A DNA stretch of 64,000 bases. Source: a plasmid. A program made the position numbers and the translations under genes. Location of the stretch: sequence record NZ_CP049149.1; one strand, written 5' to 3'. Shown here one piece after another: positions 15,904-33,658 of the stretch. Positions within the stretch are counted from its first letter, which is position 1. Each line of letters begins with the position of its first letter. The notes under the pieces are model-generated. The model was not told the origin of the DNA. It saw only the letters and a list, made by a program, of their open reading frames with translations, and searched no databases.

Positions 15904-16509
15904 ATGGAAAGAGCAATGATTGCAGCTGAAAAAATCAAAAAGCGAGAGCGAGATGCCTCTCTTCGAGACCTTTGGCGCACTCCCAAATGGTTGTTTATCG
16001 CCATCCAACGATATATAGGCGCCGAGTTCGATGTGGACGTCGCCTGCAACAAGGATAACGCGTTACTGCCCAACTACATCGGCGTTGAACGTGATGCCCT
16101 GAAAAGCAGCTGGGGTGAGCCTGGCACCGTGGCATTTCTAAACCCGCCCTACTCCCGGATATCTCCTTGGATCGACGCGGCCATTCGGGAGCAGGCGCGT
16201 GGCGTAACGACAGTCATGCTGATCCCACAGTCCCTCGATACCCAATGGTATGAACGCGCCACTGAGTGCGCCAACGAGACCGTTATTCTGTCTGGCGGCC
16301 GTGTGGCGTTTGTGGAGCCGGATGTCGAGCTGGGGCTGGTGGAGGTCAACGTGAATCCCGGTGGCAGTATGCTGGTCATCTTCCGTGGGTTTTGTCAGGA
16401 AGCTGGGCATGTCATCAGCAAGATACCGCTGGCGGTGATGAAAAAGCTGGGTGGTTATGATCCTGCCAATGTCATCAGAAAGAAAAGACCAGTTAAGAAG
16501 GCAGCTTGA
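15904..16509 (+). CDS. phage-type DNA N6-adenine methyltransferase (Dam-like)
   Basis: LWRTPKWLF, NPPY motif (FLNPPYSRISPW), VTTVMLIP typical of phage Dam MTase family. Confidence 0.8.
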   Translation: MERAMIAAEKIKKRERDASLRDLWRTPKWLFIAIQRYIGAEFDVDVACNKDNALLPNYIGVERDALKSSWGEPGTVAFLNPPYSRISPWIDAAIREQARGVTTVMLIPQSLDTQWYERATECANETVILSGGRVAFVEPDVELGLVEVNVNPGGSMLVIFRGFCQEAGHVISKIPLAVMKKLGGYDPANVIRKKRPVKKAA

Positions 16510-16523
16510 TACCAGTCTGAGAG

Positions 16524-16592
16524 TGTTTCAGAACCTGCTTCCGTATATATAAATAACTAAGTACTAATTATTAATATATACAGAAACAGGCT
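16524..16592. repeat. large imperfect palindrome element, copy 1 (promoter/operator-like)
   Basis: TTCAGAACCTGCTTCCGTATATATAAATA...ATATATACAGAAACAGG; TTCAGA-N16-TATAAA gives sigma70-like spacing; near-identical copy at 44602-44656. Confidence 0.5.
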
Positions 16593-16708
16593 TTTAAAGT
16601 CTGTGTTTCTGAACCCACTCCCAGACCGATTTACACCTCCAGAACTCTCTGGAACCCCTCTCCAGACGCTCTAGAATCGTTTTTAAAGACACAGTAAGGA
16701 AAACTATC

Positions 16709-16939
16709 ATGGCATACCCGACGAACGTCGTAGCGCTCGTTGAGAGCGATTTTCTGGCCAAAGCCCGTGACATGATGAAAGATCGCGAAAAGGCTTTCAG
16801 TCTGTACGAATGGTCACTCAAATGCCTGCACGCAGGCGAGCATCGCGAGTTGCTGGAGCAGCTCTTAGGCGAACTTATCAATGAGGTGTTTGCACTCAAT
16901 GTCCAGCTTCATGGGCGAGATAATAACCAAACAGTTTAA
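16709..16939 (+). CDS. hypothetical protein (76 aa)
   Basis: ATG with AAGGAAAA SD downstream of palindrome element. Confidence 0.4.
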   Translation: MAYPTNVVALVESDFLAKARDMMKDREKAFSLYEWSLKCLHAGEHRELLEQLLGELINEVFALNVQLHGRDNNQTV

Positions 16940-17470
16940 TAGGTAAGTACAAACTATTTTAAGCCGTGATCGCCAGTGATAAAATCTCCGCGCTGGCAGA
17001 TGTATCTGCCAGCTCGACCTGATGGGTGGGGGATAGCGTCACTGGCGTCAGGTTTAAAAAAGCCCACTACCAGCGTAGAACCGGCACCGTTTAGGGGTTG
17101 GGGAAGGGGGAACCAAAGTGGGCAGAGACAAGGGTCACTTTATGATTGTCGAGTCTGGGATGTTTCGAGAGGTTGAATCCAGTACTCCCCTTCATAGAGT
17201 GTGGGAAGATCTCGGTTCTGGGGTGCTGTCATCCATAACTTCCCAAGCCTAAGCTGGCAGTAGACTTAGGTCATAACTTTTCAGGTTATGTAACGACCAG
17301 GTTGGTGAGGAATTTTTGTACTCACCTCCCTGGGAGAGTATTACCTGAAAAGACAACCTCTCACTTCGTTCGAGGTGAACTTCACTCACTTCGTTCGTTC
17401 AGTTCAGGGGATTTAACCCCTGTTCTGGGAAGTAAGTTTTTTTATTAATTTAAATACTTTACACGCACGC
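16940..17470 (+). other. 530-bp non-coding, hairpin-rich region (possible structured RNA/regulatory DNA)
   Basis: no credible ORF; perfect 20-bp palindrome CTGGCAGATGTATCTGCCAG (16993-17012), G-rich tract, direct repeat TCACTTCGTTCG x2, CAGGGGATTTAACCCCTG hairpin, then AT-rich block. Confidence 0.3.
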
Positions 17471-17524
17471 GTGCGCACACGCGCGAGGAAAAAAATCGTC
17501 GCGGCGCGCGTTTCTGGAGCCACC

Positions 17525-18118
17525 ATGACGACGAAGACACCAGCCCGACAAAAAACTGGCTGCCGGCCAAAGTCCAAACGAAACCATCCCCAGACCCGAT
17601 TCAAAACTCCCGCAGTCGACTTCAATCCCCAGCTTAAAACCGTAAAAGTGTTCAGTGACGGCTCCTGCCTCAAAAATCCGGGCGGGCCTGGTGGCTACGG
17701 CATTGTTCTCCAGTATCGCGATGAAGAGCGCGAGCTTTCTGATGGCTTCCACAGCACCACCAACAACCGCATGGAAATGATGGGCGCGCTGATGGCTCTG
17801 GAGCGGCTCAAGTACCCCTGTAACGTCATTCTGTATTCGGACAGCCAGTATCTCAAAAACGGCATGACGCTCTGGATGAAAGGCTGGAAGCGCAACGGCT
17901 GGGTGACGTCAGAGAAGAAGCCAGTGAAGAATGTTGATTTGTGGAAACGACTCGATGCAGCGGCCAGTCGACATAACGTTCGCTGGCAATGGGTCAAAGG
18001 CCATGCCGGACATCGCGAGAATGAGATCTGCGACCGGCTGGCAAAGATAGCTGCTTTCGCCGCAGCGGATACCCCACACAAACGAGATATCGGTTTTTTG
18101 GCTCAAAATGATAAGTAG
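17525..18118 (+). CDS. rnhA: ribonuclease HI
   Basis: ~55-60% identity to E. coli RnhA by eye ([48 protein letters not shown]); ATG 17525 with GGAG SD gives ~45-aa basic N-terminal extension not present in host enzyme. Confidence 0.85.
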
Positions 18119-18261
18119 GTATTTACCTATCATATTAAATCAGGTATCTTATCCATCGTCAGGATGACGAAGCGTCGGTAAGGCGCTGTTCCACGGATGG
18201 AACGCCCAAAGGCGGCTGGCAATGCCAGCCGCAACTCTTTCTGACATTGAATGGATTTCAC

Positions 18262-18738
18262 ATGGCACACCAAACGCCTCTCACTTCTTTCAAAAAGCGC
18301 CCCCGTTCAATACGCCTTGCTTTGGCTGAGTTGTTTAGCGGCCGTGTTTCCGCACGTCTTGCGCAGCTTGAAGAGCGGGTGTTTGACCTGGAGGTGCGGG
18401 CTAATGCCCAGGCCACCACGATTGCCAATCTGGGGACGATTATCGCCGTCGATAAGGCAGGCGATTCCGCCAAATCCCGGAAGCACACAGGGAAAAGCAA
18501 TGGAAAATTTTCAAAGAAAGCGTCTGATGCCAATGGCCTACGCGCTAATTTTGGTTTCTCTGGCCGCGGCAGCAGTTCCAGCCGGTCAGAGCCTGTTGAT
18601 ACCGGATTCAACCACTACCACCACACCATCGTCGACGACACGCCTTCCAGAGAAAGCGTCTGCCACTCTGGATGGGATGTCTCTGGACACGATTCCGGGT
18701 CGTCCTGCGATTTCGGATCTTCCTCCTGCTGCGACTGA
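18262..18738 (+). CDS. hypothetical protein, outer frame of overlapping ORF pair
   Basis: open frame with coiled-coil-like N-terminal half; weak RBS; C-terminal half is low-complexity and fully overlaps 18500-18751. Confidence 0.25.
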   Translation: MAHQTPLTSFKKRPRSIRLALAELFSGRVSARLAQLEERVFDLEVRANAQATTIANLGTIIAVDKAGDSAKSRKHTGKSNGKFSKKASDANGLRANFGFSGRGSSSSRSEPVDTGFNHYHHTIVDDTPSRESVCHSGWDVSGHDSGSSCDFGSSSCCD

Positions 18739-18751
18739 GATGACGGCATGA
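18500..18751 (+). CDS. secreted Thr/Pro-rich small protein (83 aa)
   Basis: AGGGA SD 6 nt before ATG; signal-peptide-like MPMAYALILVSLAAAAVPA; stop overlaps next start (ATGA); codon usage looks coding. Confidence 0.45.
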   Translation: MENFQRKRLMPMAYALILVSLAAAAVPAGQSLLIPDSTTTTTPSSTTRLPEKASATLDGMSLDTIPGRPAISDLPPAATEMTA

Positions 18752-18945
18752 GATTTAGTTTTCAGAAGACTTTCACGCTGATGGTTGGACTTTGTGTCCT
18801 TCTGCTCGGCGGTTGGGTCATGAATCTGTTGAAGCTGATCGCCAGCGGAGATCTGCATTCTCACGCCGGGATAACACTGGCCCGCGTCGTGGGGGTCTTT
18901 CTGGTGCCGGTTGGCGGCATCCTCGGCTTTTTTAACGCTGAATGA
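18748..18945 (+). CDS. small membrane protein (2 TM)
   Basis: LMVGLCVLLLGGWVMNLL and VVGVFLVPVGGILGFF hydrophobic helices; coupled to upstream gene. Confidence 0.45.
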   Translation: MRFSFQKTFTLMVGLCVLLLGGWVMNLLKLIASGDLHSHAGITLARVVGVFLVPVGGILGFFNAE

Positions 18946-18999
18946 TTTTCAGGGTTGCTTAAACAATTTGTTAAATCACTTAACTAATAGGGAAAACAC

Positions 19000-19425
19000 A
19001 TGTTAGGTTTTTTAAAAAAGAAAACGCGTAAAGCGGTTGTTGAAGTGAAAAAGATGGAGAACCGCGACGCTGTAGAGGCGACCGTCTGGGGTGCCTACAT
19101 GATCGCATACGCTGACGGCAACTGTGATGCCAAAGAGATCGCCATTCTTGAAAAAACCATCGCGGCGCTGCCAGCATTCTCTCCGTTCGCAGGCGAAATC
19201 GCGCAGATGAGCAGCAACATTCGCGCGCGTTATGAGGCATCTCCGCGCTCTGCCAATGCCCAGGCTCTGCGTGAGCTGGGTGACGTAGCCGGTACGCCGG
19301 AAGCTGTAGATGTGCTGTGCCTGTGCATCGACATTGCAGATCAGGATGGCATCGGCGAAGAAGAAGAGATTGTGCTTAAGAAAATCGCACAGGCGCTCCA
19401 GCTCTCTCTGGATGCGTACATCTAA
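19000..19425 (+). CDS. TerB-like domain protein (putative)
   Basis: two repeats of the ADG-x-D-x-E-x3-L pattern (YADGNCDAKEIAILEKTI; ADQDGIGEEEEIVLKKIAQAL) reminiscent of TerB; preceded by promoter-like repeat. Confidence 0.4.
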   Translation: MLGFLKKKTRKAVVEVKKMENRDAVEATVWGAYMIAYADGNCDAKEIAILEKTIAALPAFSPFAGEIAQMSSNIRARYEASPRSANAQALRELGDVAGTPEAVDVLCLCIDIADQDGIGEEEEIVLKKIAQALQLSLDAYI

Positions 19426-19580
19426 TGGCAGAGAAATTAAGGCTGGCCGTCGTCGCCATTCTTCTCGTGCTGGTCGTGCTGGTGGACTTCACTGGCAAAC
19501 TGATGTCTATCGCGGCAGATGGCGTGTTGGTTGGATTGGCTATCTACTTTGCCCAACCTCTACTTAAAAAATCGAAGTGA
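19425..19580 (+). CDS. small membrane protein (51 aa)
   Basis: TAATG overlap with upstream gene; LAVVAILLVLVVLV TM segment. Confidence 0.35.
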   Translation: MAEKLRLAVVAILLVLVVLVDFTGKLMSIAADGVLVGLAIYFAQPLLKKSK

Positions 19581-19612: not shown

Positions 19613-19707
19613 GGTTTAACCGTTATGACGCGTTTGCCCCCCTCTTCTGAATTGTCAGAATAAAGCCACCAAGAAAACAAATTATTTTAACAATTAAGGA
19701 AAAACAC

Positions 19708-20286
19708 ATGTGTGATAAATGCACCGCCGCTAACGCTGAAGTAAAGAAGATCATTAATGAAGTCGGGGCTAAAAAACTCGTAGGGATGCTTGATTCTATA
19801 ACTGGTCATGGTGACGCTCATCCGCTGGAACGCATCATGGCCATCGTCCAGGTCATGGACTTATTTGATGAACCAATGAAAATCCTGATGCTTGCTCGTC
19901 ACTTTGGCGGGGCGTATGTGGAAGAGCATGAACGTGCCAATAAACTGCAGGCAACTCTGGACATGATGAGCGAACCAAAATGCGCGCCGGCGCCAGAGCT
20001 CTCCGGAGACAATATGGGCATTGAAAGCAAAGAGCGGGAGATCGCCAGCCTTAAGTCTTCTTTAGGCATGTTAATTACCGCCTTTAAACTAATGGCAACC
20101 CATAACGGTTTCAAAATGCCAGAGCTAACCGGCGATGAACATCCCGCTGCTATTCGCCAGCTACTTGGTGCCATGACGGATAATATGGATGAAGCGAAGA
20201 GCCCTATCGAAGATATGATGCGAGAACTTGCCCACCGCCACGATCTAAATGACCAGCCGCACAAGATGCAGCAAGTCAGCCACTGA
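19708..20286 (+). CDS. hypothetical protein, paralog A of a duplicated cassette (192 aa)
   Basis: ~50% identical over full length to 28346-28915 (N-terminal MCxxC, conserved C-terminus KCAP...FKMPE...DMMRELAHRHDL); preceded by promoter-like repeat. Confidence 0.6.
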   Translation: MCDKCTAANAEVKKIINEVGAKKLVGMLDSITGHGDAHPLERIMAIVQVMDLFDEPMKILMLARHFGGAYVEEHERANKLQATLDMMSEPKCAPAPELSGDNMGIESKEREIASLKSSLGMLITAFKLMATHNGFKMPELTGDEHPAAIRQLLGAMTDNMDEAKSPIEDMMRELAHRHDLNDQPHKMQQVSH

Positions 20287-20298
20287 ACCTGAAATAGC

Positions 20299-20318
20299 AA
20301 GGGGGCGAGAGCCCCCTT
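20299..20318 (+). terminator. GC hairpin after paralog A
   Basis: AAGGGGGC GAGA GCCCCCTT; same structure follows paralog B. Confidence 0.4.
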
Positions 20319-20414
20319 CCCCTCCTCCGTAGCCCTCTGTATAGATCTTTTACGCCTTTTCTTATCTGAGATAATAAAACCAATAGGAAAACAAATTGTT
20401 TATATGGTGGGATT

Positions 20415-20630
20415 ATGAGTGCTGCGCTTTCTGTCCTTGAGTCTTTTGCTTCGAACACCGGTATCGACCACAGCAAAGAGATGAACGTCATCCATGCAAT
20501 CGTGGCCGAGTGCGAGAAAGGGATCGCGTTCATGCACCAGGTTCACGACTTCACTTATGGCGACGAACGTCACTGGAATAAGTGTTTAAGATTTGTACTA
20601 CGTACATTGGAAGTGGAAATTATTTGGTAG
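20415..20630 (+). CDS. small hypothetical protein (71 aa)
   Basis: follows promoter-like repeat; N-terminus homologous to truncated ORF at 29035. Confidence 0.45.
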   Translation: MSAALSVLESFASNTGIDHSKEMNVIHAIVAECEKGIAFMHQVHDFTYGDERHWNKCLRFVLRTLEVEIIW

Positions 20631-20691
20631 GGATATAAGATCATATCCCTAAGCTCTTTTAAGAAAAAATTTCTTAATAACCTAATGTAAT

Positions 20692-23600
20692 TTAAATCCT
20701 TCCTCCAACCCCTTTAAATTTTTCGATAAACGCCCCAATTTTTTGGAATACGGTCTGCTTTTTCGTTTTGTACTGAGGATTCAGTGGACTGAGTTTTGGT
20801 AGCGTCTCATTTAACTCCGTCCCATTTTCGGTAGCATATTCCCGTTTGAGTGATGTACGGATATAGCGCCTTGCCGCCTCTTCATTGAGGTTTTCTTCCT
20901 TAATCAACGCTTCCGCTTCCTGTTGCTGTTCACGCTGAGCATAGGTAAAGAATGCATCAATGATACTGGCCTTATCCGGCATGTCATCAAGGTTAGTTTG
21001 CTGAATAAAGTCAACAATCAGACCTTCTTTGGCACGGTTGCCCAGACTTGACCGGATTAAGCGTCGGACCTCTTCAGTCAGGGCTTCTTTACCCTTTTTC
21101 TGACGGTTGTGGTCAAAAATCAGGCCCAGAATGTAGTCCAGGTTAATCTCTTGCGACTTGAGCAGGTCAATTTCAAACACCACGTCATCCCAGTCCGTGG
21201 TTGATGTATCCCTGTCGTTTGCTGCTTTTTCACGTCGCTGCCAGTCCCGGATATCATTGTAAGCTGAGCGGTAGTCCTGAACTTTACGTTCGGCAGGGAG
21301 GCGAATGGTTTGTAATTCAGCAAATTTTTCATCATCCACGTAGTGCTCTGCTTTAAAGGTTTCTACCGCTTCCGGGTCACTAATATCAACCTTCTGCAGG
21401 GCTTTCAGCGTGGCAAATTCATCGTAGTTTTGCAGGATGTTTTCTGCCCGCAGATATTCACCAAACAGTTTGACGAAGGCTTTTTTCTCTTTTTCACTGT
21501 CGATACTGGCAGGGTCAGGGAAGCGCTGCTCCAGCTCCGAAACAATAGACATAAAACCTCGTTTAGCTTCGCCGGTTGCCGCATCGCTAAAGCCCTGCAT
21601 GTACTCTTCGTAGCTTTTTTCCAGTACCACATTCTTGGTGTTTTTGTCGCCAAAAAGTGTAATGGCATCAATGGTGGGACGCTCCAGGTCCCTGAAAGTC
21701 ACGATATTGCCGAAGGTTTTGGTTGCATCATAGATACGGTTGGTGCGTGAGAATGCCTGCATCAGACCGTGATAACGCAGGTTTTTGTCAACGAACAGAG
21801 TATTGAGAGTCGGAGCATCAAAGCCAGTCAAGAACATTCCCACCACGATGAGAAGGTCAATATCCTGATTTTTCACTCGTTGAGCTAAATCGCGGTAGTA
21901 GTTCTGGAAACCGTTACTGTCGGTGCTGAAATTGGTTTTAAAGTGATTGTTATAGTCATCAATGGCTGAATCCAGGAATTCCTTTGCGCTGCTGTTCATT
22001 GCACTGGTATCAAAACTTTCGTCGGTAATATCACCAATGGCGCTTTGCTCTTCATTAGCAGCAAAAGAGAAGATAGTTGCAACCCGAAGGCGTTTATAGC
22101 TGCCTGATTTTTTTGCTGCTTCTTCCTGTAGTACTTTAAACGTCGAGTAATAAGCTTTTGCCGCTTCCACACTGCTAACTGCTAACATGGCGTTAAAGCC
22201 CTTAGCTCCCGGGAAGGTTCGGTGCGTTTTCTGACGGAAGTTATTGAGAATGTATTGCGTTATTTCCTGGATACGCAGTGGGTGTAAAAATGCCTGTTGG
22301 TTTTCAGCCGCGCTGAGTTTTTTCTCATCAGTTTCCGTTTCAAGAGACTTAAACTGTGGGCGGACATCGTTATAGTCCACCTTAAACTTCAGCACTTTTT
22401 CATCACGAATCGCATCAGTAATGACGTAAGAATGTAATTCACGCCCGAAGACGCTGGCGGTGGTTTCTGCCCCCAGTGCATTTTCCGGGAAAATAGGCGT
22501 ACCAGTAAAACCAAACTGATAAAAGCGTCTGAATTTCTTTTTGAGGTTTTTCTGGGCCTCACCAAACTGGCTGCGGTGACACTCATCAAAGATAAACACC
22601 ACCTGCTGCTGATAGACGGGCAGGTCAGCTTCGGCTTTCATCAGATTATTGAGTTTCTGAATGGTTGTGACGATAATTTTGTTATCGTCCTTATCCAGGT
22701 TTCTTCTGAGGCCTGCTGTATTATCCGAACCATTGACACTGTCCGGAGAGAAGCGCTGATACTCCTTCATGGTCTGGTAATCGAGGTCTTTCCTGTCGAC
22801 CACGAAGAAGACTTTATCGATAAAGTCCAGCTCAGTAGCCAGACGTGCGGCCTTAAAGCTGGTCAGGGTTTTTCCTGACCCTGTGGTATGCCAGATAAAT
22901 CCACCGCTTTCGGGTTTTGACCAGTTCTTCGCTTTAAAAGAGCTGTTGATTTTCCAGAGAATGCGCTCGGTGGCGGCAATCTGATAGGGGCGCATGACGA
23001 GCAGCGTCTGGCTGCTGTCAAACACGCTGTAATTAAACAGAACATTCAGCAGAGTATGCTTCTGGAAGAAAGTGGCGGTAAAGTCCTTCAGGTCCTTAAT
23101 CAGAGTGTTATCCGACTTCGCCCAGTTCATGGTGAAATCAAAGCTGTTTTTATCCCGCTTAGTGGTACTGGCAAAGTACCGGGTATCGGTTCCGTTAGAT
23201 ATCACAAACAGTTGCAGGTATTTAAACAGAGAGTTGTCGCTGTTAAAGCTTTCCTTACTGTAACGGTGTATCTGGTTAAAGGCTTCACGAATCGCCACGC
23301 CGCGCTTTTTGAGTTCGATTTGCACCAGCGGCAGGCCGTTGACCAGAATCGTAACATCATAACGGTTAGCGTGTGAGCCGGTCTGTTCAAACTGCTGAAT
23401 GACCTGCACCTTATTGCGCAGCAGGTTCTTTTTATCTATCAAATAGATGTTTTCCAGACGACCATCATCAAACGTAAAATCACAGATATAGTCGATATGG
23501 ATTTTACGGGTTTTGTCCAGGCTGCTGTCACTGGGGCTGTCCAGATATTGCTCTGCGAAGCGCCGCCATTCACTTTCGTTAAACACCACACCATTAAGAC

Positions 23601-23808
23601 GCTGAAGCTGGTCCCGCACATTCGCCAGCATCGCAGTCGGTGACTTAACGGAGATAAACTCATAACCCTGATTAAGAAGATCCTGAATCAGCGCCCGCTC
23701 AAGGTCCGATTCGCTCTGGTAGCTGTCACCGGTATCCATAACTTTTGTGTATTTATCAAGGACGATAAAGTTATTGGATTCAGCAATAGTGTGTGTTTGA
23801 TGAGTCAT
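20692..23808 (-). CDS. hsdR: type I restriction enzyme R subunit
   Basis: SF2 translocase motifs WHTTGSGKT (Walker A), [10 protein letters not shown] (DEAH/DECH box), TGTPI, C-terminal helical domain; 1038 aa; low GC. Confidence 0.9.
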
Positions 23809-23929
23809 AGCGCATCCTTTGTGCCGCCTGGCAAGGGCCGGAAGGGAGTTAAGAGTGACTTCCGGCGTGTAAAAAATAGTCTATATACTGACCGGGTGTT
23901 AAGGTGGCCCGATCGGTAGCAATGGTCAA

Positions 23930-25198
23930 TTAATTACTGACAGTTTCAGGTTTCGGGAAACTGAAAAGTAAATCACGGTAGTATTCGTATTGTTTCTGGC
24001 GCAACTCGATTTCACGCGGGAGACCTTCAGTGATGGAGTTGGTCAGTGTGTCGAATTTATCCAGAATCCGAACGATTTCAGACTGGATGGCAAGGGATTT
24101 TTCCGGATTGTCCGGGCAGGGGATTGGGATTTTCAGTTTGTTTAAAACGGATTGTGTTTGGCTTGGTACTCCTCCTGCTTGGTTCATTTCGCCAAGGCCA
24201 ACCGTCGTTAAGAAGTAGTAAAGATACTTTGGCCTAATTTGTGCTTCATCAATTTCCGTATAAAAAATGGTGTCAACGGTCCAGAATGGAACATCGATGA
24301 AAAATAAATTACCAAGCGAGCCTTTTCTCGGAATTAAGACTGAAGGCTTATTATAGGCATAGGTATCTACATATCGCATGATTCCACCTGAACCGTAAAC
24401 AGGGAACTCGCCTTCGCTGAGAGATTTATGATCCTTGCCATTTCTGATGCGAGCCAAATCACTCAATGGCAACCACTCAACCTCAACCCCATCCAGCAAT
24501 TTTTCCAGATAAATAGGTTTTTCCTGCTCCTCATCAAAACTCAGCAACTGGTCGCGATAGTAGTTGTACTGCTTTTTGCGCATGGTAAGTTCAGCTGTAA
24601 GTTCAGCTGTAAGTTCAGCTGTAAGTGCAGTAAACTTATCCAGAATCCGGACGATTTCAGACTGGATAGCAAGGGACTTGTCCGGTTTATTCGGACAAGG
24701 TATAGGGATTTTGAATCCTCCCATTACTGCTGAGTTCAAGTTGTTGATGGTTGAGCTATTCAACATTTCATCGAGATATTTTTGAAAAATATCACTTGTT
24801 AAAACGTGAAATAAATAACGCGGATTTAATTTTTCATCGCATCTGACAACACCCATAAATCCGCCAAAGTAGTAGTCAATATCTGATTCAATGTAAGCAA
24901 CTTTTCCAACATGTTCACGGCTACCACTTGCTGCGCTTATCAGTATGTCGTCCTTATATAGTTTTTGCGAATCCTTTACTTTGGTGTCAAACTTCACCAG
25001 TTTGACATCATTTAAATTTAAACAATTACTAGACAAAGTGATATTGTTAGCACGAAGGACCCTGTAACCTTGACCATCTGCGCTTTCATTCGATTTGCTG
25101 TAAGTTAAACCACGTATATATTTCGCGACTTCTCCCAGAGTCTTCCACTCAACAACAACTCCATCTAGCAATTTGTCTAGATAACTCAGCTTGCTCAT
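23930..25198 (-). CDS. hsdS: type I restriction-modification specificity subunit (two TRDs, IC-family central repeat)
   Basis: two target-recognition halves each followed by [15 protein letters not shown]; central [14 protein letters not shown] and conserved [10 protein letters not shown] / [10 protein letters not shown] blocks; start overlaps hsdM stop. Confidence 0.9.
24584..24631 (-). repeat. 12-bp tandem repeat encoding (TAEL)3 in HsdS central spacer
   Basis: GTAAGTTCAGCT x3 plus degenerate 4th unit on plus strand = ACAGCTGAACTT codons on minus strand. Confidence 0.8.
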
Positions 25199-26751
25199 GA
25201 CTGCACCTCACGGCCTTCAATTTCAGCCACAATTACATCGATATCCTTACGTAACTGATCGATTTTGCCGACGGTGATTTTCAGTTCAGTATTCAGTTCG
25301 GAGATATCAATTATTTCTCGGGTATTCATGGCTTCGACGTAGCTGCTGACTGACAGGTTATAGTTATTGGCGGCAACTGTTTCATGAGGGATAGTTTTAG
25401 CGAGGTGGTCAATATCCGCTTTGCTGGCAAAGGCCTGCATAATCTGTTCGATATGACCATCAGTCAGGATATTGTTATTGGTTTCTTTCTTGAACAAACC
25501 GCTGGCATCAATAAACTGAACACTGGTGTCAGTTTTATGTTTAGACAGCACCAGAATGTTAACGGCAATGGTGGTGCCGAAGAACAGGTTTGGCGCGAGT
25601 GAAATCACCGTTTCAACATAGTTGTTGTCGACCAGGTACTGGCGGATTTTCTGCTCTGCACCGCCACGGTAGAAAATACCGGGGAAGCAGACTATTGCTG
25701 CACGTCCTTTAGCAGACAGGTAGTTCAGCGCATGTAGTACAAACGCAAAGTCAGCTTTTGATTTCGGGGCCAGTACGCCAGCTGGAGCAAAGCGCTCATC
25801 GTTAATCAGGGTCGGGTCGTCACTGCCAATCCACTTAACCGAGTACGGAGGGTTAGAGACAATCGCATCGAACGGTTTTTCATCGCCAAAGTGAGGCTCA
25901 GTCAGGGTATTCCCCAGTCTGATATCAAATTTGTCGTAGTTGATGTTATGTAGGAACATGTTCATACGCGCCAGGTTAAAGGTTGTATGATTTATCTCCT
26001 GACCATAAAAACCTTCTTCAATGATATGGTTATCAAAGTGTTTTTTCGCCTGAAGCAGCAGTGAACCGGAGCCAGCTGCAGGGTCATAGATTTTGTTGAC
26101 GTGAGTCTGACCGTGCATCGCAAGCTGAGCAATCAGCTTAGAGACGTGCTGAGGTGTGAAGAACTCCCCGCCAGACTTACCGGCATTTGCCGCATAGTTA
26201 GAAATCAGGAACTCGTAGGCATCACCAAACAGGTCAATCTGGTGCTCGTTAAAATTCCCCAGTTTTAGCCCCTCAACGCCTTTGAGAACGGCGGCAAGAC
26301 GGGTGTTTTTGTCTTTGACTGTGTTACCCAGTCGATTGCTGGTCGTATCGAAATCGGCGAACAGGCCTTTGATGTCGGCCTCCGACGGGTAGCCGTAGGC
26401 AGAGCTTTCTATAGCGACGAAGATACTGTTTAAATCAGCATTTAGCCTGTCGTTGGTGTTCGCTTTAGCGGCAACGTTGCAGAACAGCTGGCTCGGGTAG
26501 ATGAAATAGCCTTTAGTCCTGATGGCATCGTCTTTGATGTCATCGGTAATGATGCTGTCATCAAGTGCTGCATAATGTATGCTCTCATCCCCTGCTTCCA
26601 TGTAGCTGGAAAAATTCTCACTGATGAAGCGGTAGAAAAGGGCACCGAGTACATACTGTTTAAAATCCCATCCATCTACGGAGCCTCTGACATCATTGGC
26701 AATGGCCCAGATTTGGCGGTGTAGCTCTGCACGCTGCTGAAGGCTTGTCAT
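25195..26751 (-). CDS. hsdM: type I R-M N6-adenine DNA methyltransferase subunit
   Basis: N-terminal HsdM domain ([37 protein letters not shown]), AdoMet motif [11 protein letters not shown], motif IV NPPY. Confidence 0.9.
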
Positions 26752-26999
26752 TTTGTATCCTGTTGTATGATTCTTAAGTACTGTTATTGGCCCGATTTTA
26801 TCGCAATTTCATATTGATGACAGGCTTTGTATGTCATACGTTGCACTGAGAGTTCGTTTGCCCGGTTGTGTAGCCAACACTCTTTCAGTCAGGCCAGTAG
26901 AAACGTTGTGCTGACGATAAATACTGAAGCCCCAATACTATCGGGGCTGAACGTTCAGTCGGTGAGAATTTCTTCATCCGTATCCATTGTGGATGGTGA

Positions 27000-28200
27000 T
27001 CAGGGCGAGAGCGTGAACAAATTGTTAAATTGACTTCAATTCAGCCAGCCCTGCGTCCAGTACCTTTTCCAGATATGGGCTGCTCATGCCCGCAAATTGC
27101 TGCTTCTTCCGTAAGCTTGCCTTACGGCTGGTTTCGGCTCGCAGCATGTTTTGCGCCATGTGTCGTGCACAGGCCAATATTTGAGGGGCATCACCTCGAT
27201 ATATCTGGCAGGCATCCTCATTCATCACGACATCCAGTACCCAATGCAGTTGGTTTTCGATGCCCCAATGACTGCGCACCCCGTTGGCAAATTGCTCTTC
27301 GGTTAGTTCAGCCGAGCTGATGTAGTAACGGTACTCTAGCGATTCATGCCCCTTGCTGTCGCACCGATAACCGATGGCAACCCCCAAGCTGGATAAACCT
27401 TTCCAGGCCGGGAACTGCTCGGCTATCGCCCCAACTGGCATGACATGGTACTCACGGATCTCTATTCGCCCCCGTGAGCGCTCTATCTTGGCCTGATGGC
27501 TACCTTCTCGGGCCTGCAGCGCCATGGCCTCACGTACTGCGCGATATAGGGTTTCTTGGTTGCCTTTGACTGCCAGTAGATAGTCGCCTCCCTTATCGAC
27601 TATCTTGGCAGCAATCTCGGTTTGGCAACCCATAGCATCAATGGACACCAAACAACCACGGACATCCAGCAACACCAGTAATTCCGGAATAGCAGTGATT
27701 TCATTGGACTTAGTGTCTGTCTTGACCTGTCCCAGCACCACGCCATTGGCGCTGGCAAACGCGCTGACCATGTGGATGGTGGATTGCCGATCCTCACGGT
27801 TATATGAACTACGTAGAACCTTGCCATCAATAGCAATCAATTCACCACTGACGCGTTTGTGGACGACTTTCATCCATTTGAGGAAACAAGCCTGAAATTC
27901 GTCTGGCGCCAGCCGGGATATCACTCTGGCAATGGTGTCGTGCACAGGAAGTCCGTTGGGAAACAAGCCTTTATCCTGGAGCCAGCGGCAATGGGCCTGA
28001 CCGAAGTCTTCAATATCTTCCCAGCCTTCACATCCACCAATGACGGCGCATACCGTCAGGAACACGATGTCGAACAAGGGGTAAGCAATTTTTGCCGACT
28101 GACGCGGGTCCTGAAGATCAGCAAAAATTTCAGCAAAGGCATCCAGTTGCATTGATGTACTCCCAGAAAAGGAAGTATCAGATCACAACTGATCCCCAGG
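27000..28200 (-). mobile_element. ISAs1-family insertion sequence (boundaries approximate)
   Basis: transposase ORF fills the element; terminal inverted repeats not confidently identified; sits between hsdM promoter region and paralog B promoter repeat. Confidence 0.45.
27025..28152 (-). CDS. ISAs1-family (H-repeat-associated) transposase
   Basis: N-terminus MQLDAFAEIFADLQDPRQSAKIAYPLFDIVFLTVCAVIGGCEGWEDIEDFG characteristic of H-repeat/ISAs1 transposases; DDE region present. Confidence 0.8.
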   Translation of the reverse strand: MQLDAFAEIFADLQDPRQSAKIAYPLFDIVFLTVCAVIGGCEGWEDIEDFGQAHCRWLQDKGLFPNGLPVHDTIARVISRLAPDEFQACFLKWMKVVHKRVSGELIAIDGKVLRSSYNREDRQSTIHMVSAFASANGVVLGQVKTDTKSNEITAIPELLVLLDVRGCLVSIDAMGCQTEIAAKIVDKGGDYLLAVKGNQETLYRAVREAMALQAREGSHQAKIERSRGRIEIREYHVMPVGAIAEQFPAWKGLSSLGVAIGYRCDSKGHESLEYRYYISSAELTEEQFANGVRSHWGIENQLHWVLDVVMNEDACQIYRGDAPQILACARHMAQNMLRAETSRKASLRKKQQFAGMSSPYLEKVLDAGLAELKSI

Positions 28201-28345
28201 TCAAAATGTACTGTGCTCGGTTAAAAAACGTTCATGATCTTGCCCTGCCCTGCTCTCCCTTAAACACAAACTTTCTTGTCATTACGTATAATGTGATAAT
28301 AAGACATATAAGAAAACATTTTGTTTAAACTAATAAGTAAATGAC

Positions 28346-28915
28346 ATGTGTCTGAATTGCAAAGATAAATACGCAGAGATGAATGCAAAATTTGAAGAAA
28401 TGGAAGTCGTGGATCTGGTAAAAATGCTTGGTATAGTGCGCGGCACAGAGCAGTCTTCAGTGCCTGAAAGACTGATTACTGTCGTTAAATTCGCTTCAAT
28501 TTTTGATGACCCAATGGAAATCATTGGCCTGGCGCACCAACTAGGTGTTCACTATCTGGCAGAGAAAGATCGCGCCGATAAAATGCAATCCACACTGAAT
28601 ATGGTCAGCGAGCAGAAATGCGCACCGAGCGCCAGCAAAACTGACGAAACTGTCGCCAGTAAAGACCGCGAAATTGCCGGTCTGAAATCTTCGATGGCCA
28701 TACTTATTTCTGCCTTTAAGTTGATGACCACCCAGACAGGTTTCAAAATGCCTGAGATGAACAATGAAGATCCGATGGCTGTGCGTGAACTGTTGGGCGC
28801 GCTGGCCGACCAGCTGGACACCAAGAAAAGCCGCCTGGAAGACATGATGCGCGAGCTAACCCACCGACACGATCTGACTAAACAGCCGCACAAAGCGCAG
28901 CACGCGAATCACTAA
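28346..28915 (+). CDS. hypothetical protein, paralog B of duplicated cassette (189 aa)
   Basis: homolog of 19708-20286; own promoter-like repeat at 28295-28330. Confidence 0.6.
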   Translation: MCLNCKDKYAEMNAKFEEMEVVDLVKMLGIVRGTEQSSVPERLITVVKFASIFDDPMEIIGLAHQLGVHYLAEKDRADKMQSTLNMVSEQKCAPSASKTDETVASKDREIAGLKSSMAILISAFKLMTTQTGFKMPEMNNEDPMAVRELLGALADQLDTKKSRLEDMMRELTHRHDLTKQPHKAQHANH

Positions 28916-28932
28916 TCGCTTGACTCAATGAC

Positions 28933-28952
28933 GGGGGCGAAGCCCCCTTTTC
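28933..28952 (+). terminator. rho-independent terminator
   Basis: GGGGGC GAA GCCCCC + TTTTC. Confidence 0.5.
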
Positions 28953-29034
28953 ATGCCTGTAAATCCTCCTACTATGCCTTTTGAGCTCTGAAAAATAACA
29001 CCAATAAGAAAACAAATTGTTTAATGCTTTTATT

Positions 29035-29124
29035 ATGAATACAGCCCTTTCTATTGTTGATGACATTAGTCTGAACACTGAAATCGACTATCGGCAGGAG
29101 ATGGGTGTTATGGAGCCAGTCTAG
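29035..29124 (+). pseudogene. truncated copy (29 aa) of the 20415-20630 small gene
   Basis: MNTALSIVDDISLNTEIDYRQEMGVM aligns with MSAALSVLESFASNTGIDHSKEMNVI then terminates; downstream DNA is a lower-GC insertion. Confidence 0.35.
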
Positions 29125-29271
29125 ACGACGATACCATTCTGCTATTCTTCAAACACGGAAACATCCACTTTCTGGTTGGCTCTCAAGCTACTAGGTTATT
29201 CATGTCCGTAGGTGGAAATAAGTGTGCCAACAGATGTTATGGTAAATAAGAGTGATGTGAAGCTATGAATC

Positions 29272-29775
29272 ATGGGGAGAAATACACGGATGGAAGTCGA
29301 GATATGTGGTGTTGCAAATGTGCCGGAACTAGCCCATCTTTTTGTTGAAATGGAGGATTATTACTTCGGTCGCGGCGTTGTCAGCTATGAGGATATGAGC
29401 GCTTATCTTGCTGACAAAGTATTCTCTACTTATTCAGGCGTTACGGTTGTTGGTGCTCGTAAAAAAGGAGAGCTTGTTGGATTTGCCACTTTTTCGCTGA
29501 TGTTCCCCGCGCCGCTTTGTTCCGGTCAGGCATTTATGAAGGAGATCTTTATATCAGAAGCGGTACGAGGCCAAGGTGTCGGTAAATCGCTAATTAGGTT
29601 TATCGCAAACTTTGCCCTCAAACACGGTTGTTCACGCCTTGACTGGACTGCGGAGAAGTCCAATCCGAAAGCCGGAGAGTTTTACTTGTCCATTGGTGCC
29701 ACTCTAATTGAAGAAAAACAGTACTTTAGGCTGGAGGGGAAGGATCTCGAGACGTTTTCTTCACTCGCTGAGTGA
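29272..29775 (+). CDS. GNAT-family N-acetyltransferase
   Basis: acetyl-CoA motif A RGQGVGKSLIRFIANFA; ~45% GC; alternative ATG at 29290 has better SD. Confidence 0.7.
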   Translation: MGRNTRMEVEICGVANVPELAHLFVEMEDYYFGRGVVSYEDMSAYLADKVFSTYSGVTVVGARKKGELVGFATFSLMFPAPLCSGQAFMKEIFISEAVRGQGVGKSLIRFIANFALKHGCSRLDWTAEKSNPKAGEFYLSIGATLIEEKQYFRLEGKDLETFSSLAE

Positions 29776-29866
29776 GTATCAGAATAGGGCGCACTTTTGA
29801 TGTTATGATTATTTCTCGTCAATTTGTTAATAGTTAACGTAAAGATACGGAGAGTGGAATAAACAA

Positions 29867-30271
29867 ATGACAATTTTAGTGACGATACAGAGCCAACTTG
29901 TTGTTGGTGAGGCGCAGGTGATAAAGAGCTTGGCTCCTGAAGGGATGTTGGCAGCCGTTTTCGAGGACGATGGTGAAACCGGGTATTTCTACGCTCTTGA
30001 TGAGTCTGTCGACGGCAACGCCATTCAAGACGCAGTACATATTTACAACGTAGAAGATATTGCGGATGGAGATATCCCTTCTGACGTTAAAATCGGCTGG
30101 TCTCAAGATAGTCAGAAGTGCGTGCTTCTGATCAACGGTTATCCCTACGGGGTGTTCGATTTCGTGGGCAAAAACGGGTATTGCAGAAGTGGCTTTCCTC
30201 CACCGATTAATGATACATGGTCGGCATCCGGTCATGAGTGGAGCGACGCAGTGGATGATTTTTTTCGATGA
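29867..30271 (+). CDS. hypothetical acidic protein (134 aa) downstream of GNAT
   Basis: GGAGAGTGG SD; the fully overlapping minus-strand ORF has no RBS. Confidence 0.5.
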   Translation: MTILVTIQSQLVVGEAQVIKSLAPEGMLAAVFEDDGETGYFYALDESVDGNAIQDAVHIYNVEDIADGDIPSDVKIGWSQDSQKCVLLINGYPYGVFDFVGKNGYCRSGFPPPINDTWSASGHEWSDAVDDFFR

Positions 30272-30524
30272 ATCCAAGCAAGCCTAGCATCTGCCGTTAT
30301 GCTTCTAATATTAAGCACTTATATGGGAGGTCGCTTCTTGCATCGATATATCTATACTGTTTGCGACATTTCGGTTGAGTGTTTGATAAGGTTCCATTGA
30401 TAATAAAACCCAAATGGTAAAGACCGTTCGTAAAGTAAGGCCAATCTTGTGGCCTTAAACAAATTGTTTTCACCCACTAGTTATTATCCCATCATTTAAA
30501 ATTGCCCTTTTCTGAACGCACGGA

Positions 30525-30544
30525 TACTGTTTGTATATACAGTA
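30525..30544. promoter_or_regulatory. LexA (SOS) box candidate
   Basis: TACTGTTTGTATATACAGTA = CTGT-N8-ACAG matching 18/20 of consensus TACTGTATATATATACAGTA, 18 nt upstream of ATG 30562. Confidence 0.5.
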
Positions 30545-30561
30545 TTCAGGGTGGAAAAAAG

Positions 30562-30828
30562 ATGGGCGGCAAAGACAGCAACTACCAGATCGTTTATCGC
30601 GGCGAGACGCTTCAGTGCCTCAAGCCTGGGCAATATGTCTTCTTTCAGCGGCTGAAAGAGTATGGCGGAGGATTCTGGTTGGGAAAAACCTACGAAGATG
30701 GCTTTGAGTTTGTGCTGGAGTGGCCAACCTCTCTGAGTGAGGGGCTGCTGTATCTGATGTCACTTGAGCGCATGGAGGCGAACTATCTTGAGTTTGTTAA
30801 TGACATCGATGATTTTAAGCTGACCTGA
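30562..30828 (+). CDS. small hypothetical protein (88 aa), putatively SOS-regulated
   Basis: ATG 30562 behind LexA-like box. Confidence 0.5.
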   Translation: MGGKDSNYQIVYRGETLQCLKPGQYVFFQRLKEYGGGFWLGKTYEDGFEFVLEWPTSLSEGLLYLMSLERMEANYLEFVNDIDDFKLT

Positions 30829-30910
30829 CAACCTCAGGCATCTTTTTAATGCCGTATGTGATTTGAGATAATAACACACACAAGAAAACAATTTGTTTAA
30901 GGAGGTTCCC

Positions 30911-31147
30911 CTGTTCGGAACCACGGGCGAAATCATTGAGAAGCTGGAGAACTATCCGGAAAACAATTTTCTTCTGATGGTCATGTGGCACAAGTAAGGC
31001 GTAAGCTAGGTTCGACCGGATCTGACAGACGAGCAGTGCGTACAGGTGATGCGTAAAATCAAGGACTTCCATGATGGGAATGTGGGCGTGAATTGGGATG
31101 TTATCGCTAACACGGCCGATATCCTGTTTCTGAAGGAGAAGGCGTGA
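30911..31147 (+). pseudogene. decayed small gene (no ATG start, in-frame TAA and TAG)
   Basis: perfect promoter repeat + AAGGAGG SD at 30855-30903 but first in-frame codon is CTG; frame continues through TAA (30995) and TAG (31007) to TGA 31145 with protein-like sequence on both sides. Confidence 0.3.
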
Positions 31148-31464
31148 TGCTGACATTCAACGAATCCTATAAGACGGCTGTGATCGGCACCGCCCATGTC
31201 ACGGGCAAAGACTTTTAGCTGCTGCCTGTCGTGTGCTTTGACCCATTGACCGATCGCGGACTGAATTGGGTACACGGCACACAGTACGGCTGGATTGTTC
31301 GTGCGGGAATTCGAGGGAATGACTGGAGGGAAGAATTGCATGAGTACGGCATTTCGAAAGAGACGATCTCAAACACACAGACCATACTAGATGCCGGATA
31401 TGACGCGGTACATTTTGACAGTGATGTGGAGCTGGTGGATGGGATACCGGCATGGGATTGGTAA
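31147..31464 (+). pseudogene. small gene interrupted by in-frame amber codon
   Basis: ATG 31147 overlaps previous stop (TGATG); same frame runs to 31464 apart from TAG at 31216-31218. Confidence 0.35.
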
Positions 31465-31477
31465 GGGAGAGAAAAAG

Positions 31478-31672
31478 ATGACGGCAGAAGACGTGATTAA
31501 TGATGTGCTGGTGGAGCTGGGTAAGCTACCTGATCATCTCCTCATAGCCACCGTATTTGACAACATACCTGCTGAGTTAAAGGCCCTGGCCAATGAGTGG
31601 GGATGGATGGATACGGAAGTTAGAGAGCAGCTATATGCGATAGCCTGGCGGATTGTTAACGCGCAACAATAG
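31478..31672 (+). CDS. small hypothetical protein (64 aa)
   Basis: AAGGGAGAG SD before ATG 31478. Confidence 0.45.
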   Translation: MTAEDVINDVLVELGKLPDHLLIATVFDNIPAELKALANEWGWMDTEVREQLYAIAWRIVNAQQ

Positions 31673-31823
31673 CCTGCAACGCGTTGACATTGGTGGTCAC
31701 TAATTGAGGATTTCTATAAGAACTCGTTGATCGCCCTCTTCCCTACTCTCCAACTTCATACACTCCAGGCGCGGCAAGGCTTTTACGCACATAACACCCA
31801 CAAGAAAACAAATAAATAATACA

Positions 31824-32009
31824 TCAATGAAAAGTCAACGCTTTACCCTGATTTGGTCCAAAAAGTTGACGTTTTGCCATGTCACTTCTTATATCCGTTA
31901 AGCAGCGTACCAGAGACCAACACCCTGCGACGAAAACGCCAAAAACGACTCCTGATACCACCACAAAACAGACATGCTCAGAATGGCTCTCGTTGCGTTT
32001 AATGAGCAT
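31824..32009 (-). CDS. small membrane protein candidate (61 aa)
   Basis: minus-strand copy of promoter repeat at 32013-32030 abuts ATG; one TM segment; no SD. Confidence 0.25.
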   Translation of the reverse strand: MLIKRNESHSEHVCFVVVSGVVFGVFVAGCWSLVRCLTDIRSDMAKRQLFGPNQGKALTFH

Positions 32010-32039
32010 ATAAACAAATTGTTTTAGGCATTAAGAAAA

Positions 32040-32640
32040 CAACAAAACAAGATAACGAAGAAAAGGAACTGCCATTACCCACACCCAGGCAATACCCACC
32101 TCTTCCTGCCAGGCTACCGAAAAGACCAACCTCATTGCCCTAGGCTACCGACCCCATGAAGCAAACCTCGAGCACTACCAAAAAGCGACAAGAGAAAGGC
32201 AATTTCTCTGAACGCCATTCCCCCAATACACGGAAGAGATACCCGGGAAGAAACTCCAGACCAGAACAGTCCCCGGCGTCATATCGTTTACCCACTCTTA
32301 CCCCGAAAGATAACGCAAATTCCTGATTAGCAGGGAACGCCATTACTTCACATAAGGAGAACTACAACAGACCAGAAATCACATCACCCACACTTCCACC
32401 TCTCAAGGTAAACGAAAGGAAAAGCGCACACGCCATTACTCCATACACAGAGAAGAACTATCCCCAAAACGAAGAATACAGACCAGAGGAAAACCACAAG
32501 AAAACCATCTCTACAACATCTGCAAAACCACTTACCGGCAGAGAGAAGAAAGTCGCCTTTTCTCCCATACGAATGGTCACCGTATAGAGCGCTAATAAGA
32601 GAGATACGAGTCCCCATAAGAGAGGTTATTCGAGTCAGGA
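32040..32640 (+). other. 600-bp untranslated strongly A+C-rich, G-poor tract with degenerate direct repeats
   Basis: G ~15%, C ~30%, A ~40% on coding strand; recurrent ACGCCATTAC and AGACCAGA units; opposite-strand ORFs encode implausible G/T-codon proteins. Confidence 0.5.
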
Positions 32641-32810
32641 AAGAGCACAGATATAAGAGAGAGGGGATGGCGGGGGATCGCTCCCTTTCCCGTATTTATT
32701 CAAGTCATGATTTTATCCCCCGTAACATCCCTGCGGTCGAACGAGTGAAAGGGCTACCGCGAAAATCAATCGGGAGCGTCCCCGCAGGGGAAAGGCTGGC
32801 TGCCTGAGTG

Positions 32811-32843
32811 GAAACGGCTGGAGGTTTTTCGGGAAACGGCTGG
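32811..32843. repeat. iteron-like direct repeats GGAAACGGCTGG x2
   Basis: two copies 21 bp apart; related triplet at 36167-36232; both loci preceded by CTCCCGCAGGG-like sequence. Confidence 0.4.
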
Positions 32844-33080: not shown

Positions 33081-33131
33081 GCTCCCGATACGCTCCCGGA
33101 TACTCACTACTTTTCCAGTTCTCCCCGATAC
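33081..33131. repeat. direct repeats CTCCC(G)GATAC x3 immediately upstream of a promoter repeat
   Basis: copies at 33083, 33094, 33121. Confidence 0.4.
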
Positions 33132-33428: not shown

Positions 33429-33440
33429 AGGAGGAAGACA

Positions 33441-33653: not shown

Positions 33654-33658
33654 CAACG

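Follow-up and report, generated by a model that had tools for sequence, protein, structure and literature searches.

An EcoR124-family (type IC) restriction-modification system as probable accessory cargo of an SSU5-like phage-plasmid

We analyzed a stretch of 64,000 nucleotides from the plasmid record NZ_CP049149.1 (hereafter the window, numbered from its first nucleotide), in which the genes hsdM, hsdS and hsdR of a type IC restriction-modification (R-M) system lie next to an insertion sequence (IS) of the ISAs1 family. The three genes, an intact EcoR124-family system by sequence, very probably travel as accessory cargo of an SSU5-like phage-plasmid, in a slot whose defence and accessory genes vary. 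All four large minus-strand open reading frames (ORFs) of the region 20692-28200 were found where the original prediction had placed them, and the prediction had taken them as an uncommon cargo of a tailed phage, recently mobilized by the IS. The observation is confirmed, and this first interpretation is partly supported. The main value of the result is corrective: type I R-M genes found complete in a 'phage' look striking when viewed alone, and in phage-plasmids R-M and other defence cassettes are a matter of routine exchange.

The hsd genes and their relation to EcoR124

HsdR was aligned end to end with the HsdR of EcoR124I (PDB 2w00), which has the same length, with a score of 2130 bits and an identity of about 91% (829/909 residues displayed). 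HsdM is 93% identical (480/517) to the EcoR124 HsdM chain (PDB 7bst_D). Both values lie above the identity to the archetypes, of more than about 70% for HsdR and HsdM, which serves as a rule of thumb for the type I families (PMC10030836). Furthermore, the C terminus of HsdR covers the complete EcoR124_C profile (PF12008, positions 1-260 of 260, E=3e-72). The catalytic motifs are kept, namely D151, E165 and K167 of the nuclease, GSGKT at 310 (Walker A, K313) and DECH at 408 in HsdR, and DPAAGSG at 223 and NPPY at 300 in HsdM. The genes follow the order hsdM-hsdS-hsdR; the start of hsdS and the stop of hsdM overlap as ATGA, and a gap of 121 bp lies ahead of hsdR. The same order and an HsdR also of 1038 amino acids (aa) are found in EcoR124I and EcoR124II (PDB 2w00, 7bst-7btr), whose carrier R124 is a conjugative IncF plasmid, whereas the carrier here is SSU5-like. 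PADLOC assigned the three proteins to REase_I, Specificity_I and MTase_I. The EcoR124_C domain, the TAEL repeats of HsdS and the 91-93% identity to EcoR124 confirm the complete type IC system of the original prediction, and the region reads as an intact EcoR124-family system, a new allele of a well-known one.

The N-terminal, central and C-terminal conserved regions of HsdS match EcoR124 HsdS (PDB 7bst) and are nearly identical to it, including the TAEL repeats. In contrast, neither target-recognition domain (TRD) matches that of EcoR124 in the comparison with PDB sequences, and both are unlike those of EcoR124I and of most relatives. Since both TRDs differ from those of EcoR124, the target sequence is expected to differ as well. 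As a side observation, residues ~222-242 of HsdS, past the central conserved region, contain an extra duplicate of the protein's own N-terminal motif; the duplicated segment is missing in EcoR124 HsdS, in pCS1 HsdS and in the 402-aa alleles, and is present in the Klebsiella and the 433-aa alleles.

The central region carries three TAEL repeats, as in EcoR124II. A sister locus (L006, GCA_047428785.1) has the same TRDs and an identical hsdM, but two TAEL repeats only, so that its HsdS counts 418 instead of 422 aa. Two and three repeats correspond to spacers of 6 and 7 bp in the bipartite target, the original case being EcoR124 versus EcoR124/3 (PMC10030836); a passage of PMC6789123, which cites Price et al. 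1989, links repeat number and spacer in the same way. From this rule and the repeat numbers we infer a spacer of N7 here and of N6 in the sister. By analogy, the difference is the classic N6/N7 spacer switch of EcoR124I/II, and the sister pair offers a natural test of the EcoR124I/II spacer rule. Such variation is not rare: among 50 HsdS proteins from EcoR124-like systems on phage-plasmid and viral contigs, 30 had two repeats and 15 had three. Clustering of the same 50 proteins gave 16 groups for TRD1 and 19 for TRD2, which occurred in 27 combinations.

A variable slot in SSU5-like phage-plasmids

Across most of its length the window shares 97-99% identity with pCS1 and pCsaCS931a, two plasmids of Cronobacter sakazakii, and it is 77-96% identical to Klebsiella IncFIB plasmids (~110 kb) and to the Klebsiella phage ST13-OXA48phi12.3. 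The head module (45400-49400) shares 89.6% nucleotide identity with Salmonella phage SSU5 over 100% of the query. Among the PHROG matches in the window are the large terminase subunit (terL), the portal, the major head protein, a tape-measure protein of 1509 aa and two ParB-like proteins encoded at 41156-42522, and the tailed-phage context of the original prediction is therefore upheld. The replicons nearest to it are ~110-kb circular plasmids assigned to the types IncFIB or rep_cluster_763. The identity to pCS1 and pCsaCS931a, the structural genes, the SSU5-like head module and the lack of a tRNA gene together indicate that the replicon is an SSU5-group phage-plasmid of the pCS1/pCsaCS931a backbone type, of probably ~108 kb. 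SSU5-like phage-plasmids of Cronobacter have already been described (PMC9169379). The deposited phages of this group are related elements only, among them SSU5 and vB_KpnS_p4727.

Three other origins of the stretch were considered and rejected. A chromosomal prophage was set aside on account of the circular ~110-kb relatives and the absence of a tRNA gene from the window, an attachment site not having been searched for. The replicon, an SSU5-like phage-plasmid with the Cronobacter pCS1 type of backbone, is likewise no classical integrated or virulent phage. Host contamination or a chimeric join was rejected as well: at least 12 independent contigs have the same arrangement, and in the compared stretch 21025-34000 the window agrees at 100% identity with a 107,988-bp Logan contig. 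Since the arrangement and both IS junctions recur on independent NCBI and Logan contigs of ~108 kb, an assembly chimera is excluded.

The homology of the window to the backbone stops at 20573, 159 bp into a coding sequence for a DUF4942 protein annotated as a methyltransferase, and this position marks the left edge of the cassette. The alignment to ST13-OXA48phi12.3 ends at the same nucleotide, within the intact DUF4942 gene (1686 bp) of that phage. The slot is bounded by the genes for DUF3927 and a phrog_5508 protein (hypA) on the left and by a conserved block from ~31.6 kb on the right. The hypA gene shares 97-98% nucleotide identity with the Klebsiella and pCS1 relatives. The content of the slot varies. 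It holds the intact DUF4942/methyltransferase gene together with other genes in ST13-OXA48phi12.3, which represents the uninterrupted site that was sought in related phages; hsdRSM and a DUF262 (GmrSD-like) gene in the Klebsiella plasmid pKPT877-IncFIB; hsdRSM and DUF4942 in pCS1; and a small restriction endonuclease, a second phrog_5508 allele (hypB), a GNAT gene and a DUF2251 gene in pCsaCS931a. SSU5 itself and several relatives have no cassette, so the hsd genes were not found to be core in the related phages. By this comparison, the cassette is accessory and not core. The position past the DUF3927 and phrog_5508 genes is hereby documented as an accessory/defence hotspot across SSU5-type elements of Cronobacter, Klebsiella and E. 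coli.

The closest counterparts are the cassettes of the Klebsiella IncFIB phage-plasmids of ~110 kb (pKPT877-IncFIB, NZ_CP084243; vB_KpnS_p4727, PQ492289) and of pCS1 (NZ_CP012254), which occupy the same locus with the same left junction and the same order hypA, DUF4942 remnant, hsdR. Nucleotide identity to them is 95-97% for hsdR and 88-92% for hsdM. The window departs from them in the TRDs of HsdS, in a DUF262 gene cut to 14 codons by the IS, and in the sequence to the right of the IS, which is of the pCsaCS931a type (hypB-GNAT-DUF2251), hence two phrog_5508 genes. More distant parallels are the defence hotspots of P2/P4-like phages and satellites, where a fixed position likewise receives interchangeable anti-phage genes (Rousset et al. 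2022, as cited in PMC10879196), and the P1-like phage-plasmids, which likewise place R-M genes on a temperate phage replicating as a plasmid (type III EcoP1I; type IC-like in vB_EcoM-673R5 and phi456; bioRxiv 10.1101/2025.09.12.675607). The backbone here, unlike in both, is of the SSU5 group and the cassette is type IC.

A side observation concerns pCS1, where direct repeats of 219 bp with 79% identity bracket the hsd cassette (locus L004, 3935-4153 and 10432-10649). Both repeats derive from the 5' end of the DUF4942/methyltransferase gene, which is duplicated here. If they recombined with each other, the cassette would be lost and an uninterrupted site of the ST13-OXA48phi12.3 type would re-form.

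The lower GC content that the original prediction had noted in the hsd genes was also found. The cassette (20574-27000) has 45.0% GC, versus 52.2% in 1-19500 and 54.0% in 40000-64000, and GC at third codon positions (GC3) is 0.41-0.54 in the hsd genes versus 0.60-0.68 in core genes. The low-GC zone, however, is not restricted to the R-M system and extends over the entire accessory region to ~39 kb. The IS itself has 51.6% GC.

A complete type I R-M system in a tailed phage had been thought uncommon, and the public records do not bear this out. The cassette lies at the same locus in 211 PLSDB plasmids (criterion: at least 80% of 19700-27000 held). Twelve phage records have an SSU5-type head module, among them vB_KpnS_p4727 with the cassette at the same locus. 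In IMG/VR, at least 121 viral contigs encode close relatives of HsdM, some in the same context and others in remoter contexts, also of the SSU5 type, whose phrog_5508 homologue is 48-51% identical. Related type IC systems with 83-84% nucleotide identity occur in the Escherichia phages vB_EcoM-673R5 and phi456 and in Salmonella phage SJ1. The hsdRSM-DUF262 module is found on E. coli chromosomes and conjugative plasmids as well. R-M systems, often exchanged, have been reported from SSU5- and P1-type phage-plasmids in published surveys (bioRxiv 10.1101/2025.09.12.675607; PMC10879196), and 'uncommon cargo' therefore does not apply to this class of phage. A literature search on this specific cassette in pKPHS1-type plasmids found nothing. 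The arrangement is common in SSU5-like elements and is already in public records, annotated though undiscussed.

A further match concerns the 201 bases to the left of the IS (26800-27000), which comprise the spacer upstream of hsdM and the last 46 bp of the DUF262 gene. They are 100% identical to the E. coli IncFIB conjugative plasmid pQnrS1_005237 (NZ_CP026578). In that locus (L093, 5907-14275) the DUF262 gene stands without hsd genes, beside IS1203, IS1A and a type II Zorya system. This match shows that the module circulates among plasmid defence islands.

The ISAs1-family element as a joint

The IS adjoining the cassette is complete, as the full-length match of its transposase to NF033564 (positions 1-314 of 314; also PF13808 and PF01609) and the presence of both inverted repeats show, and its assignment to the ISAs1 family agrees with the original prediction. 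The inverted repeats, CAGGGCGAGAGCGTGAAC and CAGGGCAAGATCATGAAC, are 18 bp long, match at 15 of 18 positions and both start with CAGGGC. In ISfinder, the ISAs1 family is characterized by inverted repeats of 14-22 bp, CAGGG ends and a length of ~1.2-1.5 kb. The ends of the IS coincide with those of a 1244-bp contig of Aeromonas allosaccharophila, whose transposase is 93% identical at the amino acid level. The Aeromonas ISAs1 elements (ISAeme1-like; A. allosaccharophila CECT 4199) thus agree with the present one in transposase, in length (1244 versus 1247 bp) and in CAGGG termini; it differs from them as a single copy in an enterobacterial phage-plasmid with no target duplication. The closest relatives of the IS all come from Aeromonas or Tolumonas, and a search of enterobacterial species-representative genomes yielded no highly similar copy.

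The two flanks of the IS have different origins. The left flank consists of the last 14 codons of the DUF262 gene that adjoins hsdM in relatives; the remnant reads SPSTMDTDEEILTD up to its stop, and the 621-aa DUF262 protein encoded by pKPT877-IncFIB ends with SPSTIDTDEEILTD. The right flank is the sequence upstream of hypB in pCsaCS931a, and 28248-31484 is 99.5% identical to that plasmid. The hypB gene, 66% identical to hypA in nucleotides, is the pCsaCS931a-type allele, which in those elements sits where hypA is found elsewhere. The joining of a DUF262 end with a pCsaCS931a-type segment explains why the window has two phrog_5508 genes. The two flanks are not contiguous elsewhere. A target-site duplication is the mark of a simple insertion, though it does not define the family; none was detected when 8-10 bp on each side (GGATGGTGAT and CCCTGCTCTC) were compared by eye and by repeat search. 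The missing duplication and the non-contiguous flanks together point to the IS as a recombination or deletion joint, which appears to have removed nearly all of the GmrSD-like gene and not to have brought the R-M system in. The deletion of a type IV restriction gene, GmrSD-like in kind, would in this way go back to an Aeromonas-type IS.

At least 12 contigs were found to carry the identical transposase, each time in this context. Across the IS-bearing contigs, the region upstream of hsdM, the IS and the 3.2 kb to its right are 99.9-100% identical, while in some of them identity drops to 91-92% for hsdM and to 95-97% for hsdR. The contigs represent four hsdS alleles (422, 418, 433 and 402 aa). 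The simplest reading is one IS event, followed by replacement of hsd alleles through homologous recombination. The same IS joint was absent from PLSDB and IMG/VR and turned up only through the exact-protein look-up. At the right joint, the terminus of the IS and an identical target 5-mer form a short CCCTG run with two copies here and in the sister loci L005, L006 and L008, four in L007, L009 and L010, and one in the IS-free pCsaCS931a; the run looks like slippage at the IS end or microhomology at the joint.

The original prediction had taken the adjacent IS as a sign of recent mobilization. According to this explanation, the R-M genes would be an unusual, recent cargo carried into the phage by the ISAs1 element, for example as a composite or one-ended transposition unit. 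The IS does abut the cassette as an intact element that has its full transposase and two inverted repeats, the base composition of the cassette is foreign, and the near-identity of the IS and its right flank among sister contigs suggests that the IS event is young relative to the divergence of the backbone. However, the IS is present in a single copy, the left cassette edge (20573) falls a short distance into the DUF4942 gene of the backbone, and no second IS copy or IS end was found there (20.5-20.7 kb); nor was a donor replicon seen with an IS-hsdMSR unit bounded by IS ends. The same cassette with the same left junction exists without any IS in the 211 plasmids and in phage vB_KpnS_p4727. 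Furthermore, the IS interrupts the DUF262 gene of the module itself, lacks a target duplication, and forms one joint common to elements with four hsdS alleles. Mobilization by the IS is extremely unlikely on these grounds, and this claim had to be abandoned.

With the IS read as a joint, comparison of the elements gives the history of the locus. The hsdRSM-DUF262 module lies downstream of hypA, near the beginning of the DUF4942/methyltransferase gene, a site where hundreds of Klebsiella and Cronobacter relatives carry it. Later, in this lineage, the Aeromonas-type IS became the joint of the truncated DUF262 gene with the hypB-GNAT-DUF2251 segment. Recombination at an IS copy or, alternatively, an adjacent deletion mediated by the IS brought this about, and no target duplication was left. 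Afterwards, on the simplest reading, the hsd alleles were swapped by homologous recombination in a fixed frame, and the TAEL copy number shifted.

Predicted activity and neighbouring features

As HsdR and HsdM are 91-93% identical to the biochemically and structurally characterized EcoR124I, the same steps are expected here. The M2S1 complex would methylate adenines of a bipartite target, the two TRDs setting the half-sites and the three TAEL repeats the spacer. Joined by HsdR (R2M2S1), the complex would respond to unmethylated targets by ATP-driven translocation and cleavage at a distance. A lysogen would then restrict incoming phages and plasmids that lack the mark, and the DNA of the phage-plasmid, including the packaged DNA, would bear the mark and pass through cells that hold the same allele. 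The self-methylation and the defence effects of the original prediction are thus reasonable predictions by analogy.

Promoter-like hexamers ahead of hsdM and hsdR would fit the two-promoter layout of type IC systems. The intergenic region 26752-27000 (249 bp upstream of hsdM), which includes the hexamers ahead of that gene, is 97-100% conserved in relatives without the IS.

Several points nevertheless weigh against reading the cassette as common and active cargo of a Cronobacter phage-plasmid. The activity, in methylation, restriction and induction, is predicted from the sequence. A promoter scan of the regions upstream of hsdM and hsdR yielded no more sites than shuffled sequence, and we therefore treat the hexamers as candidates. 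TRD1 of HsdS finds its best match in TRD1 of EcoKI with ~30% identity, and TRD2 had no informative match among PDB sequences. EcoKI TRD1 recognizes AAC; the identity is too weak for naming the half-site here, and the prediction of the target is confined to its spacer length. As to frequency, the SSU5-type terminase-portal-capsid module was counted in 736 PLSDB plasmids, and the ratio 211/736 is approximate as megablast misses diverged backbones; the 211 include a few large plasmids, such as the 434-kb NZ_CP063946, which are perhaps not phage-plasmids. The host genus, probably Cronobacter, is deduced solely from the nearest plasmids. Finally, the IS-bearing contigs were found by exact transposase sequence, so that selection accounts in part for the 100% identity seen in the transposase coding sequence, though not for the identity of the flanks.

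The first two of these points would also suit a cassette that is inactive, or that works as a methyltransferase only (M2S1) and serves epigenetic marking and protection of the phage-plasmid DNA instead of restriction; the replacement of the upstream DUF262 gene by the IS could, in addition, have changed transcription into hsdM. Against this stand the full length of all three ORFs, with nuclease, ATPase and methyltransferase motifs intact, the conservation of the 249 bp upstream of hsdM with IS-free relatives, in which the terminator-like hairpin is kept, and the integrity of hsdR, which is intact (1038 residues) in the fully read sister loci and was seen disrupted in none of the others. We consider loss of restriction very unlikely.

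A role of the R-M system mainly in addiction, that is, in stabilizing the phage-plasmid by post-segregational killing and not in defence, was also weighed. R-M systems on mobile elements can act as poison-antidote systems (PMC10879196). A low-copy plasmid prophage needs stable inheritance, and ParB-like proteins are encoded in the window. Post-segregational killing, however, characterizes type II systems. Cells acquire type I systems, including EcoR124I, and lose them again without being killed, as restriction is alleviated or kept in check by the assembly of the complex. Killing is thus not expected of a type I system. Moreover, many natural relatives have no cassette, which shows that it is dispensable. 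Addiction as the main role is most improbable, and defence and self-marking by an accessory cassette remain the preferred reading.

A bolder and rather doubtful proposal is that the type IC cassette of SSU5-like phage-plasmids acts as a fast-changing compatibility barcode, by which sibling elements restrict each other's virion DNA. If this were true, TRD swaps and TAEL slippage (N6 to N7) would be driven by competition between phage-plasmids and not by host defence, and the conserved IS joint could act as a portable homology that aids exchange of the cassette.

Outside the cassette, the window encodes its own Dam-like methyltransferase, as had been predicted. This is a backbone gene found in every relative compared. 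No credible defence match was returned by PADLOC for hypA, hypB, the GNAT and DUF2251 genes, a TerB-like gene or the 71-aa ORF. The positions of all features are collected in Table 1.

Table 1. Features of the hsd locus and its surroundings (positions in the 64,000-nucleotide window)
Feature	Position	Strand	Details
Dam-like N6-adenine methyltransferase	15904-16509	+	PF05869 E=7e-38; TIGR01712 117 bits
hypA	19708-20286	+	phrog_5508 E=1.5e-98; left backbone anchor of variable slot
DUF4942/'DNA methyltransferase' 5' remnant	20415-20630	+	71-aa ORF; matches residues 1-53 of phrog_6263 (548-aa profile)
hsdR	20692-23808	-	1038 aa; type IC restriction/translocase subunit; HSDR_N, SWI2_SNF2/ResIII, T1R_D3, EcoR124_C; TIGR00348 734 bits
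Candidate hsdR promoter (Pres)	23873-23902	-	TTAACA-18-TATTTT, 9/12 positions, in 121-bp hsdS-hsdR gap; weak
hsdS	23930-25198	-	422 aa; specificity subunit; two Methylase_S domains (Pfam)
TAEL repeats, HsdS central region	24585-24630	-	Tandem Repeats Finder: period 12, 3.8 copies; three TAEL repeats
hsdM	25195-26751	-	518 aa; N6-adenine methyltransferase subunit; HsdM_N, N6_Mtase; TIGR00497 639 bits
Candidate hsdM promoter (Pmod)	26795-26823	-	CTGTCA-17-TAAAAT, 9/12 positions; weak
Terminator-like hairpin	26923-26959		overlaps DUF262 remnant; -17.3 kcal/mol, z=-2.5
DUF262/GmrSD-like 3' remnant	26955-27000	-	last 14 codons and stop; rest cut off by IS
ISAs1-family IS, complete	27001-28247	-	1247 bp; inverted repeats 27001-27018 (left), 28230-28247 (right)
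ISAs1-family transposase gene	27025-28152	-	375 aa; NF033564 413 bits, E=1e-123
(CCCTG)2	28243-28252		right IS joint; IS terminus and identical target 5-mer
hypB	28346-28915	+	second phrog_5508 gene, E=2.4e-86
GNAT acetyltransferase	29272-29775	+	Pfam Acetyltransf_1; accessory gene, pCsaCS931a-type segment joined at IS
DUF2251 gene	29867-30271	+	Pfam DUF2251; accessory gene, pCsaCS931a-type segment joined at IS

The GNAT and DUF2251 genes (29272-30271) form a conserved neighbouring pair in a low-GC accessory segment and are 100% identical across all IS-bearing sister loci. Near the Dam-like gene, the kilobase 15001-16000 has 41.9% GC; lower values in the window were found only in 37001-38000 (40.8%) and 24001-25000 (41.8%). 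This kilobase, directly upstream of the Dam-like gene, contains a minus-strand ORF of 225 aa with a TTG start (14997-15674); at the corresponding position pCsaCS931a carries a hypothetical gene. Two copies of a palindromic, AT-rich element of ~76 bp (16515-16598 and 44581-44663) share 83-84% identity and match in both orientations. The first directly follows the Dam-like gene and the second directly precedes the packaging module, and the pair is found in pCS1 as well. The first copy is predicted to fold strongly (-23.9 kcal/mol, z=-3.4); the element could serve as a terminator, or else as a site for regulation or binding. Finally, residues 262-545 of the tape-measure protein (54272-58801) also match the 'endolysin' PHROG phrog_1768 (E=3e-39), and a lytic domain may be embedded in this protein.

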